Source: an uncultured cyanobacterium
GTDB taxonomy: Bacteria; Cyanobacteriota; Cyanobacteriia; Cyanobacteriales; CAWCAG01
Assembly: GCA_963793425.1 (NCBI GenBank)
Contig: CAWCAG010000007.1
Span: 928,001 to 992,000, forward strand
Direction of reading: 5' to 3'
DNA length: 64,000 bases
The position numbers and the translations under genes are program-made. The notes beneath the pieces are model-generated. The model did no database searches. It was given only the letters and a program-made list of their open reading frames with translations, and was not told where the DNA came from. Within the stretch, counting starts at the first letter, position 1, and each line of letters opens with the position of its first letter. Positions 1 to 10,500 of the stretch are shown here, one piece after another.

Positions 1-505
1 ACAAAGGAGTAATATGAAACCCTGGTAAAGTATCAGCTAAATTCTCTGTTGGTAAGTCGCTGAGAAAGTCATGAAACCTGCCCAAGGCGTAACCCACTTC
101 CTGAGCTAAATTAGTATTTTTGATGGTATCAAAAGATTCACCCTGAATAAAACTAAGTCCTCGCCAGAAATTCCCCTCTGAGTCAACATAACTATCTTGA
201 CTATTTTGAGTTAATTGTACTTTCGGTACTTCCCAACGTCTTTCCAACTTCAGATGGTTTGATTGAAGATGTTGACTAATATATTCTGTACAGATGCGGA
301 GATTTTGCATCACTAATTTCGGTTGGCGAAACACCTTGATGTTAATACGTTGCAGAATAAAGTTTTCTTCTGGAATATCGAGAGTAACAAGAAAAGTATC
401 ATTGACATTACCACTACCCCAAGCTTGAATACCTTTAACCTTTCCTTTTGTTGAAAATTGGTTAGCGATCTTGATAATATTGACTAAGTTTTTGCTCTTT
501 TTCAC
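1..505 (-). CDS. Aminoglycoside phosphotransferase/N-acetylhexosamine kinase-like protein (runs off window start)
   Basis: Manual translation from GTG at 505: VKKSKNLVNIIKIANQFSTKGKVKGIQAWGSGNVNDTFLV..ENFILQRINIKVF; GxGNVNDTF is typical of APH-like kinases. Not in the ORF track. Confidence 0.75.
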   Translation of the reverse strand, partial: MKKSKNLVNIIKIANQFSTKGKVKGIQAWGSGNVNDTFLVTLDIPEENFILQRINIKVFRQPKLVMQNLRICTEYISQHLQSNHLKLERRWEVPKVQLTQNSQDSYVDSEGNFWRGLSFIQGESFDTIKNTNLAQEVGYALGRFHDFLSDLPTENLADTLPGFHITPL

Positions 506-598
506 TTTAAAGATTTGGCTAGGAAAGCACCGTTCAAATTATACCGGGGACTATTGCTCGTTTGTAGGAAGATATAGCCTCCTCGTAGCGTCCCCACT

Positions 599-1774
599 CT
601 AACCCCGAATCTGAACAGGCATAACTAAATGAGTCATCTTTACCCCACCTAAAGGGGTTAAAATTACCGGACTATCTGATGTATTCATTTGCATAGTAAT
701 TTCTGTGGCGTTGAGTACTTTCAAAGAATCCAAAACGTACTTAACATTAAAAGCAACCTCAATACTCTCCCCGGAAATTTGTGCTGGCATGGACTCTTTC
801 GCACTCCCTACATCTTGGGCGTCCACAGAAAGGGAGAGTTGCTGTGCCTCGCTGTCTAAGGTGAATTTAACAATACTATTTTTTTGCTCTGCTAATACTG
901 CCACTAATTCTAAACTGCTTAACAATCTTTTGCGTTCTACGGTTAAAGCGATCGCGAATTGTGATGGTAGTAATTGTTCATAAGCGGGGTATTGTCCATC
1001 TAATTTACGACTAGTTAAGCGTTGTTCCCCTAATTCAAAAATAACTTGTCCTTCATCATCATAGAGTGCTACCGGCTCTTTACTTTGGCGAGTTGCCAGA
1101 ATCCTTTCTAATTCTCTTAAAGCCCTGGCAGGAATAGTCACAGCGAATTCTTCAATATTATTTTTAATGGGAGTAGTTTCTTCACCTTCTCCCCCCACTT
1201 CCGTACTAGTTTCTACCACTGCCAAACGATGACCATCGGTAGCAGCAAATTCTAGGCTATCTTGTTGTAAACCTAAATGAATACCCGTTAATATCTGCTT
1301 GGTTTCATCGGTACTAGCGGCAAAAATACTACCCCGCAAACCTTCCACTAAAGCATTTCCTGGTAAATGCAGGGCTTGCCCTTCTTCAATAACCGGTAAA
1401 TCAGGAAACTCCTCTGCCCCCATACCCCTAACCTGATAACGCCCTGAAGCTGAAGTTAAGGTAACTAATGCTCCTTCGTTTTCTTCATCACCTTCTTCAT
1501 ATAACAAGGTGATTTCTCCTTCTGGAAGCCGAGAAATTATATCATTCAATAGCTTAGCGGGTAGAGTGATAGTACTACCTTCAATTACTTGGGCAGGAAA
1601 ACTGGTTTGAATGCCAAGACTCAAATCAAAAGCAGTAAGACTAACTCTCTGGCTTTTTTCATCGGCAACGAGTAAAACATTACCAAGGACAGGATGGGTA
1701 GGGCGAGAAGGCACAGCACGGCTGATTAAAGAAAGATTGGTGCTGAGATCGCTTTGAGAGCAAACAAGTTTCAT
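599..1774 (-). CDS. dnaN: DNA polymerase III beta clamp
   Basis: SRAVPSRPTHPVL, AATDGHRLA, C-terminal LVMPVQIR. Confidence 0.97.
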   Translation of the reverse strand: MKLVCSQSDLSTNLSLISRAVPSRPTHPVLGNVLLVADEKSQRVSLTAFDLSLGIQTSFPAQVIEGSTITLPAKLLNDIISRLPEGEITLLYEEGDEENEGALVTLTSASGRYQVRGMGAEEFPDLPVIEEGQALHLPGNALVEGLRGSIFAASTDETKQILTGIHLGLQQDSLEFAATDGHRLAVVETSTEVGGEGEETTPIKNNIEEFAVTIPARALRELERILATRQSKEPVALYDDEGQVIFELGEQRLTSRKLDGQYPAYEQLLPSQFAIALTVERKRLLSSLELVAVLAEQKNSIVKFTLDSEAQQLSLSVDAQDVGSAKESMPAQISGESIEVAFNVKYVLDSLKVLNATEITMQMNTSDSPVILTPLGGVKMTHLVMPVQIRG

Positions 1775-1924
1775 GGAGAGACAGGAGTTGGTTTAGGAAT
1801 GTTATTTTACTATCTTTCCTCGGACTTATTAATTTTGTCTTCAAAAATATGAACTAAGTCCGGGAGTTGATAATTGCTCAACACTACTATTCCGCATTTT
1901 CAGTTGGAACAATCAAAGCCAGGA

Positions 1925-2012
1925 TGGTGCGTTAAGCGCTGAATCAGTAGTTTAGTGGGCTTACTATCATTTTTATGCAGCGCCAACACACCCTACAATA
2001 TATGTGATCGCA
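1925..2012. repeat. Degenerate palindromic dispersed repeat (GGTGCGTT...AACACACCCTAC)
   Basis: caacacaccctacaatatatgtgatcgcac (~1984-2012) resembles caaacgcaccctataatatctgcgatcgcac at ~38102-38132. Confidence 0.5.
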
Positions 2013-2088
2013 CGACACAAATACAGTTATACCAGAAGTAGGACAGGTTATTTGTGAGGTTAGAGGAACAAGAATTGATAGAAATGAC

Positions 2089-2117
2089 TTGACTCATAAC
2101 AAACCTTTTGTTAGTGT
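2089..2117 (+). promoter_or_regulatory. Sigma70-type promoter for the aroF leader
   Basis: TTGACT (2089-2094), 17-nt spacer, TAGTGT (2112-2117) preceded by TGn extended -10. Confidence 0.6.
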
Positions 2118-2146
2118 AAGCAAAGTTATTAAAATATTGCCAAATA

Positions 2147-2203
2147 ATGTTTTCCAGCTACCAGCATTTTTACTTTTGGTTTAAATTGGTTCGCCGCGAG
2201 TGA
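2147..2203 (+). CDS. Attenuator leader peptide 1, MFSSYQHFYFWFKLVRRE
   Basis: ATG 2147 to TGA 2203; 7/18 codons Phe/Tyr/Trp including the run FYFWF; followed by a terminator; upstream of DAHP synthase. Confidence 0.8.
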   Translation: MFSSYQHFYFWFKLVRRE

Positions 2204-2230
2204 ATCTAGCTTAGTCTGGAATCTCCCGGT

Positions 2231-2261
2231 GGACTGTAGAACTGAAACTACAGTCTTTTTT
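2231..2261 (+). terminator. Intrinsic terminator of attenuator 1
   Basis: GACTGTAG (2232-2239), 8-nt loop, CTACAGTC (2248-2255), then T6. Confidence 0.85.
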
Positions 2262-2285
2262 ATTGCTCAACAATTGCTAAATCCC

Positions 2286-2342
2286 ATGAGTTTCTACTTT
2301 TATCACTTTCACTTTTTTTGGACTAGAGAAAGTTCCGGGTAG
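2286..2342 (+). CDS. Attenuator leader peptide 2, MSFYFYHFHFFWTRESSG
   Basis: ATG 2286 to TAG 2342; 8/18 codons Phe/Tyr/Trp plus 2 His; its 3' end is complementary to the 5' arm of the next terminator. Confidence 0.82.
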   Translation: MSFYFYHFHFFWTRESSG

Positions 2343-2366
2343 ATAGCCTCATGCCATTATTTTATC

Positions 2367-2400
2367 AAGCCTGGAACTAAATCAAGTTCCGGGCTTTTTT
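2367..2400 (+). terminator. Intrinsic terminator of attenuator 2
   Basis: AAGCCTGGAACT (2367-2378), loop AAATCA, AGTTCCGGGCTT (2385-2396, one G-U pair), T run 2395-2400. Confidence 0.87.
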
Positions 2401-2438
2401 CTGATCCTACCGCTATAAATTCAAGGAATAATTGCTTC

Positions 2439-3296
2439 ATGTTGAATGCCAAACTCGCTCTCAAATCACAATTCCAACCCACCAGTCTCATCAACATATC
2501 GGATCAAGTTACTATCGGTGGTTCGGAAATTGTCATTATTGGTGGCCCCTGTGCTGTAGAAAATTTAGAGCAAATGGAGACAGTTGCGGAAAAATTGATA
2601 CCAGATTCAGTACAAGCTTTACGGGGTGGAGTATATAAACCCCGTACTTCTCCCTACTCTTTCCAAGGATTAGGACAAGAAGGATTAGATATTTTCGCTG
2701 CTATTAAAAACCGCTGGAATATATCTATTGTTTCCGAAGTTATGGCTGTCAGTCAAATTGAAGAGATGAGCGCTTGTGTGGATATGTTTCAAGTTGGTAG
2801 CCGTAATATGCAAAACTTCGATTTGTTGAAAGCTTTAGGGCAAGCCGGGAAGCCAGTATTGCTGAAACGAGGTTTGGCTGCCACCCTCGAAGAATTTATT
2901 TTCGCAGCAGAATACATTCTAAGTCACGGTAACCCCCAAGTTGTTTTTTGCGAAAGAGGTATCCGCAGCTTTGATAATTACACTCGCAATGTTTTAGATT
3001 TAGGTACGGTAGCAGCTTTGAAACAGTTAACTCACTTACCTGTAATTGTTGATCCTTCCCATGCTGCTGGGAGAAGGGAATTAATTGCTCCTTTGGCTAA
3101 GGCTGCGATCGCCTGTGGTGCTGATGGTTTGATTGTTGAATGTCACCCCAACCCTACTGAGTCTGTTTCTGATGCTAGCCAAGCTCTTGCTTTAGAAGAG
3201 ATGGTGAGTCTGGTTGATGCTCTCAAACCTGTTGCCACAGCAGTAGGGCGTACCATAGCAACTTCACCACGTAGTCGTGAACTTTCTTTAGTTTAA
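2439..3296 (+). CDS. aroF: DAHP synthase type I-beta, catalytic domain only
   Basis: GGPCAVE, RGGVYKPRTSPYSFQGLG, GSRNMQNF, LKRG, CERGIR, DPSH. Confidence 0.93.
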   Translation: MLNAKLALKSQFQPTSLINISDQVTIGGSEIVIIGGPCAVENLEQMETVAEKLIPDSVQALRGGVYKPRTSPYSFQGLGQEGLDIFAAIKNRWNISIVSEVMAVSQIEEMSACVDMFQVGSRNMQNFDLLKALGQAGKPVLLKRGLAATLEEFIFAAEYILSHGNPQVVFCERGIRSFDNYTRNVLDLGTVAALKQLTHLPVIVDPSHAAGRRELIAPLAKAAIACGADGLIVECHPNPTESVSDASQALALEEMVSLVDALKPVATAVGRTIATSPRSRELSLV

Positions 3297-3348
3297 TTTT
3301 CGGGTTGGCAGCTTCCTCTATGCAACATTCAGCCTCTGCCAACCTTGA

Positions 3349-3678
3349 TTAAGTTTCTTCGTCTGTTTCGATTTTTTTCCCAGGAGAAGCATTATAGATA
3401 GCGTCTAACTGTTCTCTAGCATCATCAACATTGACAGAACGCATAACCAAAAGCGGCTCATTGATTGGCTGCCCTGTTTCATCCAACAATTCTGGATGAG
3501 GAACAGTTCTAGTAGTTCTGCTTCCAGAATTAGTAAAATTATTGTTAGTGCCGGAATTGGGCTTATAAGTATAGCGGCGGTTTGATTCAGCAGTTAAGTT
3601 AATCAAGTTGCTAATCAGGTTACTAATTGCAAAGAAGGCAATAACTGTAAAGGCAAGAATGTAAAGTATGTGTAACAT
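3349..3678 (-). CDS. DUF2973-like cyanobacterial protein
   Basis: MLHILYILAFTVIAF N-terminus; HPELLDETG..EPLLVMRS..DDAREQLDAIY. Confidence 0.75.
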   Translation of the reverse strand: MLHILYILAFTVIAFFAISNLISNLINLTAESNRRYTYKPNSGTNNNFTNSGSRTTRTVPHPELLDETGQPINEPLLVMRSVNVDDAREQLDAIYNASPGKKIETDEET

Positions 3679-3777
3679 TATTGTTATCCTCTCAGTGGAA
3701 TAATTTTTTTTGACAAAAGTTTCTTAAATAAAGAACCAGCACAGAAGTTAGAAATCACTTCCGTATTGGTAAGTAGT

Positions 3778-4104
3778 TTAATCATAGGCTTGTTCTTGGT
3801 GGGATCGCCATTTTTGCGATAGTTGCCAGCATTCTGCTACTAACCGATGCCAAGGTACAAGGGTTGCTGTTTCAATGCCAGCTTGGCCATCAGTTGCTTG
3901 TAACAACATCTGAGCAACCTTAACTTCTTGTTGGGCGTGAGAAAGCCGTGCTAGTAAATCAGCTTGCTCTTCCCTAGTAAGCAAAGAAATTTCTTGTGCT
4001 TCTAATAAAGATTGTGAACGAGAAAACCAATACTGAAAATCTTCGAGCAGAGGCCCAAGGACTGTTTTGAGCAGTTCGTTTTCAGAAAAATGAGAAGGCG
4101 ACAT
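3778..4104 (-). CDS. DUF2605-like cyanobacterial protein
   Basis: LLKTVLGPLLEDFQYWFSRS...PWHRLVAECW; usual neighbour of DUF2973. Confidence 0.75.
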   Translation of the reverse strand: MSPSHFSENELLKTVLGPLLEDFQYWFSRSQSLLEAQEISLLTREEQADLLARLSHAQQEVKVAQMLLQATDGQAGIETATLVPWHRLVAECWQLSQKWRSHQEQAYD

Positions 4105-4202
4105 TTATATATAATTAGTTTACTATCTAAGTCTATATATTAGCGTTATTTACAATCTTTAATATTTATCTACTTGGATTTTTGGAGGTGATATGCTAAA
4201 AG

Positions 4203-4247
4203 CCTCTAAATGGAGGGCAAGTTTGAAGCTTGCCCTCCATTTAGAGG
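4203..4247. terminator. Perfect 19-bp inverted repeat, likely terminator after the small basic ORF
   Basis: cctctaaatggagggcaag, 7-nt loop, cttgccctccatttagagg. Confidence 0.7.
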
Positions 4248-4262
4248 TCTTCTTGCAACAAT

Positions 4263-4460
4263 TTAGTTATTGTTGTCGTTGCCATTATTATCGTTGTTGT
4301 TCTCATCAGTGGCATTGCCTGTACCAGTTTTTCTGCCCCCACCATTACCGTAACGCTTACCTCCACGGGTAAAGCGCTTATTACGATTTTTTCTGAATTT
4401 GCGAGCATAGGCTTTATTGCGCTCAGCTTTTTCTTTTTTTAGATTTCTACGTTTTGACAT
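4263..4460 (-). CDS. Small very basic protein of unknown function
   Basis: MSKRRNLKKEKAERNKAYARKFRK, Asn-rich tail; GAGG SD upstream; terminator downstream. Confidence 0.65.
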   Translation of the reverse strand: MSKRRNLKKEKAERNKAYARKFRKNRNKRFTRGGKRYGNGGGRKTGTGNATDENNNDNNGNDNNN

Positions 4461-4616
4461 TATGACCTCATTGACACGACAAAGCGCCTTCAGCTTTGGC
4501 TCGTTAGATTAACTCCCAAGCGTTTCTGAGGCGCTTATTGAATTTAGACTTGATTTACTACTAAATAACTATTGTGGTCTAAAACTCTGGGGGATTGCTA
4601 AATAAATCTTCAACTC

Positions 4617-4895
4617 CTAGAACCGATTATTTTTTCTGCGATCGCCTCGATCTTCCCTTGGTCTAGCTTTGTTGACTCGCAACTGTCTATTCATCCATTC
4701 TGCACCATCAAGTTCAGCTATGGCTTTGTCTTCCTGGCTTTCTTCTTCCATTTCTACAAAAGCAAAACCACGAACTCGGCCTGTTTCCCTATCTTTTGGT
4801 ATGACAACGCTTTTAACAGAACCGTATTCTGCAAACACTTCGGACAGGTCTTCTTCTTTAACCTGGTAAGATAGGTTGCCTATGTAAATTGTCAC
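4617..4895 (-). CDS. rbp: RRM RNA-binding protein
   Basis: RNP2 IYIGNL, RNP1 RGFAFVEM. Confidence 0.95.
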   Translation of the reverse strand: MTIYIGNLSYQVKEEDLSEVFAEYGSVKSVVIPKDRETGRVRGFAFVEMEEESQEDKAIAELDGAEWMNRQLRVNKARPREDRGDRRKNNRF

Positions 4896-5130
4896 TAATG
4901 CTTCTCCGTCTGAAATACTTGCTCAGATCAAGCTCGGCTAGAGATTATTCAGAAATAATCATAGGCTAGCCTATGATTATAATTTCTGAAAACTTCTCTT
5001 GGCTATGAGGGTTTGTTAACCGCTAGCTAGTCCGATACTCAAATCTATTTTCGTACTAACTATAGCATATTTGGGCTAGGGTAAAACCGAGTTAAAAATT
5101 GGTTTGAGAATAAGCTTTCTAGATGAATTT

Positions 5131-5481
5131 TTAGCCACCGCTAATCTTCGCTTTATAGCCTAATTTTTGCAAAAATTGGCAAATTTTTTCTTTATGGTCA
5201 CCTTGAATTTCTAAAGTATTGTCTTTGAGGGTTCCACCGCTACCGCAATAGCTTTTTATTTGTTTGAGTAGAGGGCTTAAGGTTTCTAATTTACTTTGAA
5301 ATCCACTAATAACGGTGACGGTTTTACCTTTACGCCCTTTGCGAGTTGATTGTACTTGCAAGTTTTGTTGGTTAGGGTGTAAATCTGGTTGCCCCCGCTC
5401 TAACGCTTCTGGCTGGCTAGCTTCACCAAATTCTTGGTAAGCAATTCTTTGGTGAGAAGAAGATTTACGCTTTTTGCTCAT
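5131..5481 (-). CDS. yciH: SUI1/YciH translation factor
   Basis: RKGRKGKTVTVI, CGSGGTLKD, EIQGDH. Confidence 0.92.
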   Translation of the reverse strand: MSKKRKSSSHQRIAYQEFGEASQPEALERGQPDLHPNQQNLQVQSTRKGRKGKTVTVISGFQSKLETLSPLLKQIKSYCGSGGTLKDNTLEIQGDHKEKICQFLQKLGYKAKISGG

Positions 5482-5557
5482 AAAGGTTGTTTGATTATTC
5501 GGGCTTCGCTAATAGATTTATAATTAAACCTGTCGTAATAGTATTTTGCCTTAAATT

Positions 5558-6799
5558 GTGAGCGCCACTACCAACACTGCGGTTTATACCGACTCTCAAC
5601 AACCTGATGCTTTAGGAAGATTTGGACGTTTCGGGGGTAAGTATGTACCGGAAACTTTGATGCCGGCTTTAAGTGAGTTAGAAACTGCTTATAGTCAATA
5701 TCGTCAAGATCCTGACTTTGTTAAAGAGTTACAAGGACTACTGCGAGATTATGTCGGTAGACCTAGCCCTTTATATTTTGCCCAACGCCTTAGCGATCTC
5801 TACACCAAATCTGACGGTACAGGGCCGCAAATCTATCTTAAACGAGAAGATTTAAACCATACCGGGGCCCATAAAATCAATAATGCTTTGGCTCAAATTT
5901 TGTTGGCTAAGCGTATGGGAAAGCAACGTATTATTGCTGAAACCGGGGCAGGACAACATGGCGTAGCTACAGCAACAGTGTGCGCCCGCTTTGGTTTGTC
6001 ATGTGTAATTTACATGGGGGAACAGGATATGGAACGCCAAGCCCTCAATGTTTTTCGGATGCGCTTGTTAGATGCAAAAGTGCAACCGGTAACGGCCGGT
6101 ACTGGTACTTTAAAAGATGCTACTTCAGAAGCGATTCGAGATTGGGTTACTAATGTGGAGAATACTCATTATATTCTCGGTTCTGTAGCTGGGCCTCATC
6201 CTTATCCGAGAATTGTTAGAGATTTCCATGCCGTTATTGGTCAAGAGACTCGCCAGCAATGCCAGGAAAGATGGGGTGGATTACCTGATATTCTCATGGC
6301 TTGCGTAGGGGGTGGTTCCAATGCCATGGGTTTATTTGCTGAATTTGTTAAAGATGCTTCTGTAAGGATGATTGGTGTCGAAGCAGCAGGAGAAGGTACG
6401 GAAACCGAGAAACACGCTGCCACCCTGACTAAAGGCCGTCCAGGGGTGTTACATGGGGCAATGAGCTATTTATTACAGGATGGTGAAGGGCAAGTTGTTG
6501 AAGCTCATTCGATTAGTGCTGGGTTAGATTATCCTGGAGTTGGGCCAGAACATAGTTACCTCAAGGATACCCAACGGGCAGAATATTACAGCGTTACTGA
6601 TGCTGAAGCAGTGGAGGCTTTTGTGCGGGTATCGAAGCTAGAAGGAATTATCCCTGCTTTAGAAACTGCCCATGCTTTTGCTTATTTAGAAACTCTTTGT
6701 CTTCAGTTGACTGGCAGCCCTAAAATTGTAATTAACTGTTCGGGACGCGGGGATAAGGATGTGAGGACGGTGGCTAAGTATTTAGGGAAGGAATGGTAA
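5558..6799 (+). CDS. trpB: Tryptophan synthase beta chain
   Basis: [39 protein letters not shown]. Confidence 0.98.
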
Positions 6800-6854
6800 T
6801 TTATGGGGGAGGAAGGTTTGAGCATCTTTTTGTACAGTTACTCAGTTTTGGTGC

Positions 6855-7487
6855 ATGAAATTAGAAAATTTCCAGGTTTGTGAGCGCGATCTTGATGAGC
6901 TTACTTTAGAAAAGTATTTAGGGGCTGAAGTAATTGCTGTGGATACAGAGACGATGGGGTTAATTCCTCAGCGGGATCGCCTTTGTTTGGTGCAATTGTG
7001 TGACCCCCAAGGTTATGTAACTGCTATTCCTATTGAGCGGGGGCAGAAGGAAGCCCCGCATTTAAAAAGGTTAATGGAAGATAGGGGGGTAACTAAGGTG
7101 TTTCATTTTGCCCGTTTTGATATTGTTCAATTACAATCTAGCTTGGGCATTTTCACGAATCCTCTTTTTTGTACTAAAATAGCCAGCAAACTAGCTCGTA
7201 CCTACACTTCTAGCCACGGACTAAAGAGCTTAGTTCAAGATTTAGAGCAAGTTGAGTTGGATAAAAGCGCTCAAAGTTCTGATTGGGGAAATGCAGCTAA
7301 TCTTTCTGAAGAACAGCTCAATTATGCGGCCAATGATGTTCGCTATTTAATTAGCCTACAGAGAAAATTAACTAGTATGCTAAAAAGAGAAGAACGTTGG
7401 GAATTAGCTAAACAATGCTTTGCTTGCTTGCCAGTATTTGCTTCTTTAGATTTGCTTCATTATCAAGGGATTTTTGAGCATAAGTAA
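6855..7487 (+). CDS. rnd: RNase D-like 3'-5' exonuclease
   Basis: AVDTETMG, FHFARFD, SSDW, YAANDV (DEDDy). Confidence 0.9.
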   Translation: MKLENFQVCERDLDELTLEKYLGAEVIAVDTETMGLIPQRDRLCLVQLCDPQGYVTAIPIERGQKEAPHLKRLMEDRGVTKVFHFARFDIVQLQSSLGIFTNPLFCTKIASKLARTYTSSHGLKSLVQDLEQVELDKSAQSSDWGNAANLSEEQLNYAANDVRYLISLQRKLTSMLKREERWELAKQCFACLPVFASLDLLHYQGIFEHK

Positions 7488-7576
7488 GTAGCTGAAATGA
7501 TCAATAATAGGCAACCAAAAAAATTAGCTCACTAACTACCCTTGCAATGATCTGGCTTCACAGGAGAAATTAAAGG

Positions 7577-10500
7577 ATGAAGCTTGGCTTAAACTTGACC
7601 CGTACTTCTATTATTATCTGTATTGCTATTATTTTGGTTGCCTTTGGGAGCCTAATTTTATTTACTAGTTTTACCCAGGATGAGCAAGGAGATAAGTTAA
7701 ATCCTCCCCCAGTTGAACTTACTCAGGAATGGCAATACCGACTAGGAGATTCTCCTGTAAATGAGAATGGGATTCCTGTTTGGACTCTGGAAAAGGAATC
7801 TGCCCAACCTTGGCAAGCCTTGGAAGTTCCTGGTAAGTTAAAGATTAGTTCCGGGGAAAATTTTGTTTGGTTGCGAACGACATTACCAGAAAAAACTTGG
7901 CCTTATCCTGGTCTTTATATTCGAGGTATTCCTAACTTATTACAAACTTATATTGAAGATAGTTTAAGCTATGTTTACTATGAGTTGAATCAAGATGGAA
8001 GTTTGCAGCTTAAAGAGGAAAAATGGCCTGTTATTCCCCTAGGAGATGAGTTTCAAAATAAATCCCTGTTTTTTAGAGTTTATGTTGGTGATCGCCAAAC
8101 TCTCAAAGTAGGTTTTTTCGGTAGTACTCTGATTGGTTCTCAACCTGAACTAGTGAAGAAGTTTGTTAAACAGAGTATAGATAAGCTTATTCTTGGCTGC
8201 CTATTTGTTTTTTGTGGTTTTGTACCCTTGTTATTTGCGTTGGTTAAGGGTACAGAATCTCTCTATTTGTCCTTTGGTATTTTAACTCTTGTCATTGGCA
8301 TTTACACAATTTCCGGAGCGGAACTAGCCCGCTTTTTAATTTATAATCCTCAGCTATGGTCGTTCCTTCATTATACTAGTTTCCATCTGATACCCTGCAT
8401 CGTTATTATCTTTTTCGAGCAGGTTTTTGGGTCTGGTCATAGGAACATTATTCGCAAACTATGGCAGATTCAACTAGGTTACACAGCTTGTGTGTTGGTT
8501 TTAGCGAGTAGTGGTTTAGTCGCTTGGTATTATACTTTTTATCCCACCCAGCTTTCAGGCATTATTAGTGCTTTTATTTTAATTTTTACAGCCTTAAAGG
8601 TTAAAGATAGAGATAGTCTAGAAATCAAGTTATTCACCGCTGGTTTCACAGTTTTTCTGATTACGGTTATCCACGATATTTTAAGCTATGTCTTCTTATC
8701 ATTCCCTTGGTATTTAAGCATTTATCCTTGGGGAATGTTTGTTTTTATCATTTTCTTAGCCTTTATTTTAGAGAGACGTTTCACCGAAGCGAAAAAGCAA
8801 CTACAAAAGTATGCTGTGGAAATGGAAGTAAAAAACACAGCTTTGGAGCGTTTGGACAAGCTTAAAGATGATTTTCTCGCTAATACATCCCACGAACTAA
8901 GAACTCCCCTTAATGGCATTATCGGTTTAGCAGAATCCTTAGTAGATGGAGTGACAGGAAAACTTCCGAACCAAACTTTATTTAACCTCTCACTAATTAT
9001 TTCTAGCGGTAAGAGACTTACTCAATTAGTGAACGATCTATTAGATTTTTCCCGATTAAAACATCAAAATATTCAACTGCAACTTAAAAATATTGGTATG
9101 CGAGAAATTGCTGAGGTTGTTTTAACTATTTCTCGTAGTTTAGTTGGGGATCGAGATATCCAGTTAATTAATAAAATATCTCCCGATTTGCCTCTAGTTA
9201 TTGCTGATGAAAATCGAGTTCAACAAATTCTTTTTAACTTAGTTGGTAATGCTATTAAGTTTAGTGAATCCGGGACAGTAGAGGTTAAAGCTAAAGTAAC
9301 TGAGCAATATCTATCTATAGCTGTTACGGACAAAGGAATTGGCATACCGGCTAATAAATTAAACCGTATTTTTCAACCTTTTGAACAGGCTAATGGATCA
9401 ATTTCTCGGCAGTATGGTGGTACAGGTTTAGGTTTGGCGGTGACGAAACAATTAGTTGAACTTCATCAAGGAGAAATTGAAGTCAGGTCAGTTTTAGGGG
9501 AAGGTTCTCGCTTTGTTTTCACCCTCCCTCTCGCTACAGAATTAGAAGATAGAGAAGATAGACAAACTGAAGTTAGTATTCCCCAAGACTTATCTGAGAT
9601 TAGTGGGTTACTTATCAACAATGATCAAGAAGAAATTGCTGATTCGGAAATTATTGTTCAACCAAGTCCAGGAAAATTCAAAGTTTTAATCGTTGATGAT
9701 GAACAGGTGAACCGCCAGGTTTTAATCAACTATCTTTCGCTGCATAATTATGCAATTACCCAAGCTACCAACGGACCAGAAACTCTCGATTTAATTAACG
9801 AAGGCTTCAAACCAGATATTATTTTACTTGATGTCATGATGCCGAAAATTACCGGGTATGAAGTCTGCCAGCAAATTCGCCAAACTTATTCCCCAGCAGA
9901 GTTGCCAATTATTTTATTAACCGCCAAAAATCAAGTTTCTGATTTAGTAGAAGGTTTCTTATATGGTGCTAATGATTATATGGCTAAGCCAATTTCTAAA
10001 AATGAGTTACTAGCCAGAATGAAAACTCATATTCAGCTTGCCAAAATCAATCTGGCTACTAGTCGTTTCGTACCCTACGAATTTTTAGAATTTTTGGGTA
10101 AAGAGAGTATTTCTGATGTCAACTTAGGGGATCAAGTTCAACAAGAGATGACTATTCTTTTTTCTGATATTCGTTCTTTCACAACTATCTCAGAAAGAAT
10201 GTCTCCGAAGGAAAACTTTGATTTCCTTAATGCTTATTTAAGCAAGGTTGGGCCAGTTATTCGTAACCATCGCGGCTTTATTGATAAGTATATTGGCGAT
10301 GCTATTATGGCTTTATTTCCTGAAAGTAGTGACGATGCTTTACAAGCAGCAATGGCGATGCAAAGACAGGTAGAAATTTATAACGAAGAAAGTATTAGCA
10401 AAGGCTATCCTCGTATTAATATTGGCATTGGTTTACATACCGGAACTTTGATGTTAGGAACTATTGGCGAAGAAGAAAGAATGGAAAGTACAGTAATTTC

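Follow-up and report, generated by a model that had tools for sequence, protein, structure and literature searches.

DAHP synthase is the entry step of the shikimate pathway and the first enzyme of aromatic synthesis. In attenuators of the E. coli trpL type, a 1:2 protector hairpin causes the untranslated RNA to terminate. The aroR-aroF attenuator of C. glutamicum was reportedly described by Neshat et al. in 2014, and the comparative attenuation survey of Lopatovskaya, Seliverstov and Lyubetsky (2010) is said to contain no example from cyanobacteria. At the C. glutamicum attenuator, ribosome stalling raises transcription, as predicted in PMC4046766 and summarised in PMC11802643, to go by the accessible parts of both articles. 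This attenuator is a single module with Phe-Tyr-Phe and no Trp codon and, according to the accessible part of PMC11802643, aroF transcription changed with Phe and not with Tyr, despite the F-Y-F codons. In the accessible part of another source, a 2010 survey, attenuators of this type are placed only in Proteobacteria, Actinobacteria and Firmicutes (PMC2965389).

The leader described here lies ahead of a DAHP synthase gene of an uncultured cyanobacterium, within a 64,000-nucleotide stretch of DNA that was analysed as a whole and is referred to below as the window. Like aroR-aroF of C. glutamicum, it places an aromatic-codon leader peptide before a DAHP synthase gene; in contrast to that system, which is compared here by its description in PMC11802643, the cyanobacterial leader has two modules, uses all three aromatics and belongs to another phylum. 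With trpL, pheL (pheA) and pheM (pheST) it shares a run of cognate codons, an antiterminator over the end of the uORF and an intrinsic terminator, but these three, in the same portion of PMC11802643, are single modules on branch-specific operons. It further differs from the trpL type in having neither a conserved 1:2 protector nor a Shine-Dalgarno (SD) sequence. The Salmonella mgtCBR leader also contains two translated uORF attenuators, mgtM and mgtP; as set out in the available section of PMC3641672, they respond to different signals (ATP and proline), act additively and lack intrinsic terminators, whereas both cyanobacterial modules share three codon types and end in intrinsic terminators. 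Finally, uORFC-13-1 of Acholeplasma resembles the present leader in that a predicted uORF containing Phe codon(s), together with a terminator, lies upstream of a 3-deoxy-7-phosphoheptulonate synthase gene, but in the excerpted text of Brewer et al. 2021 (PMC8632094) it is a single element, a prediction, confined to Acholeplasma and environmental sequences, and has a ribosome-binding site. No description of leader-peptide attenuation of cyanobacterial amino-acid synthesis was found in Rfam or in the open full-text literature, and the element is not described in the accessible parts of PMC13613805, PMC1173090 and PMC4007540. Here, we show how the cyanobacterial leader is built, that it is conserved, that its pairings covary and its codon spacing is kept, that a single promoter pattern stands upstream of it, and that it is linked to a short DAHP synthase paralogue.

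Results

The aroF locus and its predicted promoter

Region 2089-2438 is flanked on one side by the divergent dnaN (599-1774, minus strand) and on the other by a gene on the plus strand (2439-3296), which the earlier note had called aroF. This assignment is correct: the ORF matches the DAHP synthase model TIGR01361 (349 bits; cut-off 268) and, by NCBIfam and structure-chain alignment, encodes a short type Ibeta DAHP synthase of 285 aa. In alignment, the product spans residues 73-335 of chain 1RZM (338 aa), and it matches 1ZCO and 1VS1 (262-276-aa chains) almost end to end; the catalytic domain is complete and the N-terminal regulatory domain of about 70 aa is missing. A second, long DAHP synthase paralogue is present on C9 of the same genome (48-50% identity to the short form), and long paralogues have 68-71 aa of extra length in 15 of 16 loci. 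Unregulated DAHP synthases occur in archaea and, from the missing domain, we infer that the short enzyme is likewise free of feedback inhibition.

A predicted sigma70-type promoter occupies 2089-2117 (plus strand), with the -35 element TTGACT at 2089-2094, a 17-nt spacer and an extended -10, TG-n-TAGTGT (-10 at 2112-2117); transcription is predicted to start near 2123-2125. Since it matches 8 of 12 consensus bases, the promoter scan did not list it. The promoter had been proposed in the earlier note and is borne out by the sequence as well as by the homologues, 40 of 45 of which (non-redundant set) carry the pattern TTGAC-N16-18-TAnnnT upstream of uORF1 (35 with TG; shuffles 0.8%). A transcription start inside the leader had also been considered; the same pattern, the only one scanned, occurs between the two uORFs in 0 of 33 loci. 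An SD-like word precedes aroF in 39 of 45 homologues (here AGGA, 2424-2427, plus strand), uORF1 in 3 of 45 and uORF2 in 5 of 35, so that the lack of an obvious SD on either uORF, remarked on from the single sequence, holds and is general.

Two putative aromatic leader peptides

uORF1 (2147-2203, plus strand) encodes leader peptide 1, MFSSYQHFYFWFKLVRRE followed by a stop, and uORF2 (2286-2342, plus strand) encodes leader peptide 2, MSFYFYHFHFFWTRESSG followed by a stop. Each is 18 aa long, with 7 and 8 Phe/Tyr/Trp codons, respectively, as can be read directly and as first described; the family patterns are ..YFYFWF-xx-VHRE-stop and ..WFYGFYFW-xxx-SSG-stop. Among 46,048 ATG ORFs of 10-30 aa counted in the genome, 5 contain 8 aromatic codons in a stretch of 10, uORF2 among them, and 127 contain at least 6, uORF1 among them. 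The start codon is kept in frame: 44 of 45 uORF1 homologues have an open ATG in the expected frame, against 0 and 1 for the two alternative frames, and 32 of 35 uORF2 homologues do, against 0 and 0, with ATG-to-anchor lengths of 39, 42 or 45 nt that are in frame by construction of the alignment. The module 1 set excludes locus L047, whose anchor was misplaced by the search pattern. In-frame Tyr codons number 93, compared with 4 and 8 when the alternative frames are read. A chance origin of the uORFs is ruled out by the genome-wide ORF counts, conservation, the frame tests and the covariation described below, and a U-rich DNA or RNA motif in place of codons is ruled out by the ATG frame (44, 0 and 1 of 45) together with the frame-specific Tyr.

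Phe, Tyr and Trp are all present in 43 of 45 uORF1 and 34 of 35 uORF2 peptides, at 5-10 aromatic codons per module. Their ratio is about 3:2:1 in module 1 and module 2 alike, and thus the two do not specialise in different ligands. The distance from the last aromatic codon to the stop is 6 codons in 35/45 (uORF1) and 23/35 (uORF2).

The earlier note had seen ATTGCyAAAT before both ATGs and taken it as a sign of a duplicated module. The repeat exists in this locus (2136-2145 and 2273-2282) but is not conserved, with ATTGY in 2 of 45 uORF1 and 1 of 35 uORF2 homologues, and the modules are only marginally alike: their alignment scores 68 against 54.6 +/- 6.3 for local shuffles (12/500 as high), and cross-model matches reach 13-18 bits at most. 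Since the repeat is not conserved, a duplication is unproven; common ancestry of the two modules is possible from their sequences.

A few members look decayed (L007, L074, L086 and L127). uORF1 of L127 has a premature stop two codons past the aromatic cluster, and uORF2 of L007 (entry L007/L125) is without an ATG, GTG or TTG start; in both variants one module is predicted to be read through constitutively.

Predicted terminators and antiterminators

Putative intrinsic terminators stand where the earlier note had placed them, all elements of this section being on the plus strand. Terminator 1 (2231-2261) consists of a stem at 2231-2256 and a U tract, and folds at -15.7 kcal/mol; terminator 2 (2367-2400) has a 12-bp stem (2367-2396) and a U tract, and folds at -19.3 kcal/mol (z -4.2). 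Each module also contains a predicted antiterminator whose 5' strand is embedded in the last codons of the uORF. In module 1 this strand (2188-2200) pairs with 2223-2235 at a predicted -20.4 kcal/mol, and the base of terminator 1 (2231-2235) is common to both structures. In module 2 the strand (2331-2340) pairs with 2369-2378 at a predicted -16.4 kcal/mol, within a range of -16 to -17, and the antiterminator occupies the whole 5' arm of terminator 2. A small hairpin (2205-2220) folds in the loop of the module 1 antiterminator and looks alike by eye in several homologues.

The antiterminators covary. In module 1, 93% of cells are paired and 49 are compensatory, spread over 7 of the 11 pairs; for paired cells, 0/500 shuffles were as high, and slid controls gave 27-53%. 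In module 2, 87% of cells are paired, with 18 compensatory cells, and 0/500 shuffles were as high on either measure; all such shuffle comparisons are open to inflation by kinship of the sequences. Slid controls overall were 13-58% paired, against the 87-93% of the antiterminators. Two of five measures for module 2 were no better than shuffles (double-change pairs, 335/500; further pair types, 500/500), which is due in part to six sequences in slid register. Covariation in module 1 is strongest at columns 63-68, where the pairs are compatible with the terminator, and the four competing pairs hardly vary. The six shifted sequences (L074, L078, L087, L089, L090 and L091 of alignment A2), five of them records titled Nodosilinea, have by eye an antiterminator whose strand directly past the aromatic cluster binds terminator 2 at its flank and base, resembling module 1.

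Median duplex energies are -19.0 and -17.5 kcal/mol for cognate and -8.1 and -8.9 kcal/mol for cross-module pairs; with cognate pairing roughly twice the strength of cross-module pairing, interference between the two switches is not expected. When a stalled ribosome is modelled with a footprint of 9 nt beyond the A site, the antiterminator stays available in 41-44 of 45 sequences (module 1) and 35 of 35 (module 2) if the stall is at upstream aromatic codons; if the ribosome stops at the final aromatic codon of uORF1, the antiterminator is blocked in 33 of 45 and free in 12. Untranslated nascent RNA is predicted to prefer the antiterminator in 43/45 (module 1) and 24/35 (module 2), in an equilibrium folding that ignores co-transcriptional kinetics. 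No consensus helix corresponding to a conserved 1:2 protector hairpin emerged from the module 1 or module 2 alignments; a 1:2-like fold is present in the equilibrium prediction for the window's own full-length RNA, and module 2 is mixed in this respect. Rfam covariance models gave no relevant match in window positions 1-8000 at E<=5, and at 11 homologous loci no Rfam leader family, T-box or riboswitch reached the gathering score. A search for expression with homologue L118 (one run search) returned two low-share metatranscriptomes, with short contigs of other strains that cover the coding region only.

Distribution

The short aroF form was found in 14 of 41 same-order genomes (65-100% identity). 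Together with 67 loci from a wider search these make up 81 short-clade loci, many of them near-identical Microcoleus; the covariance models were built from non-redundant subsets of 45 (module 1) and 35 (module 2) sequences. Both modules are present in 73/81 loci, one module in 6/81 and neither in 2/81, counts that come from models built on subsets of the same loci. The uORFs and stems that the earlier note expected upstream of orthologous short aroF genes are thus in place and, with uORFs and stems conserved, antiterminators covarying and the frame kept, the tandem attenuator reading is supported. Three of the six single-module loci have module 1 only and three have module 2 only, one of the latter ending at a contig edge; five are complete, L005, L070 and L071 (module 1) and L014 and L057 (module 2), to which L136 is added. 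The two loci that have neither module are from Acidobacteriota. Full-length model matches occurred in 0 of 16 cyanobacterial loci with the long paralogue and in 0 of 13 other DAHP synthase loci.

Each module model matches once in the genome of the window. Of 151 genomes from the phylum searched independently of the protein, 28 have a match to the module 1 model, one apiece (26 strong, 2 weak). Of the 25 strong matches outside the window's own genome (150 genomes), 23 have the short aroF 196-419 nt downstream, and 22 of these 23 also have module 2; three of them come from genomes already within the first locus set. From these counts and the single match per genome, the element is patchy across the phylum yet tied to one gene, the short aroF. 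The two weak matches, L138 and L139 (E ~5e-4 to 8e-4), lack a neighbouring aroF and were taken as chance. The remaining two strong matches are decayed loci: in L119 (1500-3125) module 1 is followed by an unrelated ORF that may resemble IS200/IS605 TnpB, and in L137 (minus strand) a deletion joins module 1 to an internal aroF remnant. Plasmids gave no match at E<=1e-90. In one 99%-complete genome (G021, locus L010), the short attenuated form is the sole match at E<=1e-30 with the query used.

A quick version of the tree, made from 63 of the 110 loci, separates 40 short-form proteins from 14 long cyanobacterial ones by a branch with support 99. The three proteins from Melainabacteria lie within the cyanobacterial set, with the two from Acidobacteriota as sister group. 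Modules are present in three records of Melainabacteria or Obscuribacterales (L071, L093 and L097), two of them double and one single, and either transfer or ancient inheritance would account for them.

Discussion

The leader of the short aroF is a real and widely conserved candidate, as judged from sequence, for a tandem aromatic leader-peptide attenuator. It combines the sequence features of ribosome-mediated attenuation, namely an aromatic uORF, a putative terminator and a predicted antiterminator that excludes it, in each module. From these features and the folding models we consider it highly probable that the leader consists of two ribosome-mediated transcription attenuators in series, which sense aromatic aminoacyl-tRNA and raise transcription of the short DAHP synthase on shortage. 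With charged tRNAs at hand, the ribosome would pass the aromatic codons into the last six or so codons and cover the antiterminator strand, and the terminator would fold. If Phe-, Tyr- or Trp-tRNA were short, the ribosome would pause upstream, the antiterminator would form and RNA polymerase would go on. The SD-less uORFs are assumed to be translated. In C. glutamicum aroF, Phe alone changed transcription, and therefore the sensing of all three aromatics may not hold here.

Since the antiterminator is the predicted fold of the RNA in the absence of translation, termination would need a loaded, fast-moving ribosome. Each module would thus be on by default and would leak if initiation failed; in the folding model, read-through is the default without a loaded ribosome. 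ATG knock-outs in the uORFs are accordingly predicted to raise read-through, unlike in the trpL design. Given the lack of an SD and of a conserved protector hairpin, one module would leak if the ribosome loaded late, and a second, orthogonal module would cut the leak of the first. Full expression needs read-through at both modules, so that the read-through fractions would multiply; the steep, low-leak response proposed for the tandem in the earlier note may follow from this arrangement. On a wider interpretation we are evenly divided: that the leader represents the first amino-acid attenuator of classical type from cyanobacteria, as well as the first naturally occurring pair of orthogonal, same-signal, default-on leader-peptide attenuators in series, that the doubling offsets weak SD-less ribosome loading or loose transcription-translation coupling, and that it stands in for allosteric feedback in an ancient DAHP synthase clade that lacks the regulatory domain and is shared with Melainabacteria.

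The same RNA switch might be driven by something other than a shortage of aromatic tRNA: nascent-peptide stalling as in TnaC, with a free amino acid in the exit tunnel, general translation rate, or tRNA modification. We regard this as improbable. The peptide ends VHRE and SSG are indeed conserved, which speaks for such a reading, but these ends are the pairing strand and change along with their RNA partner, while F, Y and W are freely interchanged; moreover, the target is the aromatic entry enzyme, and a stall on excess product would have the wrong sign. General translation rate or tRNA modification would fit with every aromatic codon beginning with U, and TTT is over-used in the aromatic clusters (123:13 and 104:14, many genomes pooled, against 2.8:1 in long ORFs of the window's own genome), but other codons starting with U are rare or unenriched in the uORFs (Cys 3/814 and Leu 27/814 codons).

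Even less probable, in our judgement, is that the hairpins act mainly in mRNA processing or stability, or in the release of trans-acting small RNAs or peptides, with no conditional termination. Such a role would be in keeping with the translation-independent RNA handling reported for cyanobacteria in the accessible part of PMC7858274, and aromatic-rich peptides could partition into membranes. Against it stand the GC stems followed by U tracts, whose formation and the pairing of a strand at the end of the uORF exclude one another, the fixed codon spacing and the strict cis linkage to one gene. That one module alone regulates, with the other vestigial or under its own promoter, seems the least likely of all: both modules have compensatory changes in 73/81 loci from many families, and the conserved promoter pattern (this pattern only) stands between them in 0 of 33 loci, even though there are five complete single-module loci plus L136 and a few uORF2 copies look decayed.

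Two attenuators in series that sense aromatic aminoacyl-tRNA would have consequences beyond this locus. Coupling of transcription and translation is not universal, according to the available text of PMC7858274. A working attenuator needs a ribosome within tens of bases of RNA polymerase, which makes cyanobacterial coupling directly testable; if the two-module, default-on reading is true, the leader would be a native in vivo gauge of this coupling. Leader modules are absent from the paralogue that keeps the regulatory domain and typically number two ahead of the one that lacks it, a pairing worth noting, which points to a split of allosteric from transcriptional control where the shikimate pathway begins. 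For the production of aromatics in cyanobacteria, the leader would offer a ready sensor of aromatic amino acids, and the short DAHP synthase possibly a feedback-free enzyme.

Several further features were observed around the locus and in its relatives. trpB (window 5558-6799) is on the same strand 2.3 kb downstream of aroF; with several minus-strand genes in between, it does not share an operon with aroF. Behind a small minus-strand ORF lies an intergenic inverted repeat, 20 bp and perfect (window 4203-4247), and an 81-aa partial DAHP-synthase-like match (43%) is found at G000:C9:1067264-1067506, with the long paralogue about 0.8 kb upstream of it. In L095 (2250-2446) and L096 (Chloracidobacterium / Blastocatellia records), the sister short DAHP synthases stand behind another leader, which matches neither the module 1 nor the module 2 model; by eye it has a uORF of about 32 codons with the cluster F-x-F-x-x-Y-W-Y-W and a strong terminator (-29 kcal/mol). 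In the Acidobacteriaceae bacterium KBS 96 record (L107, 2085-2275), a long-form DAHP synthase lies behind one aromatic uORF, MAIVVANYYSFRFWFWPASSRVASA, and a terminator (-22 kcal/mol), and this leader may be an independent attenuator.
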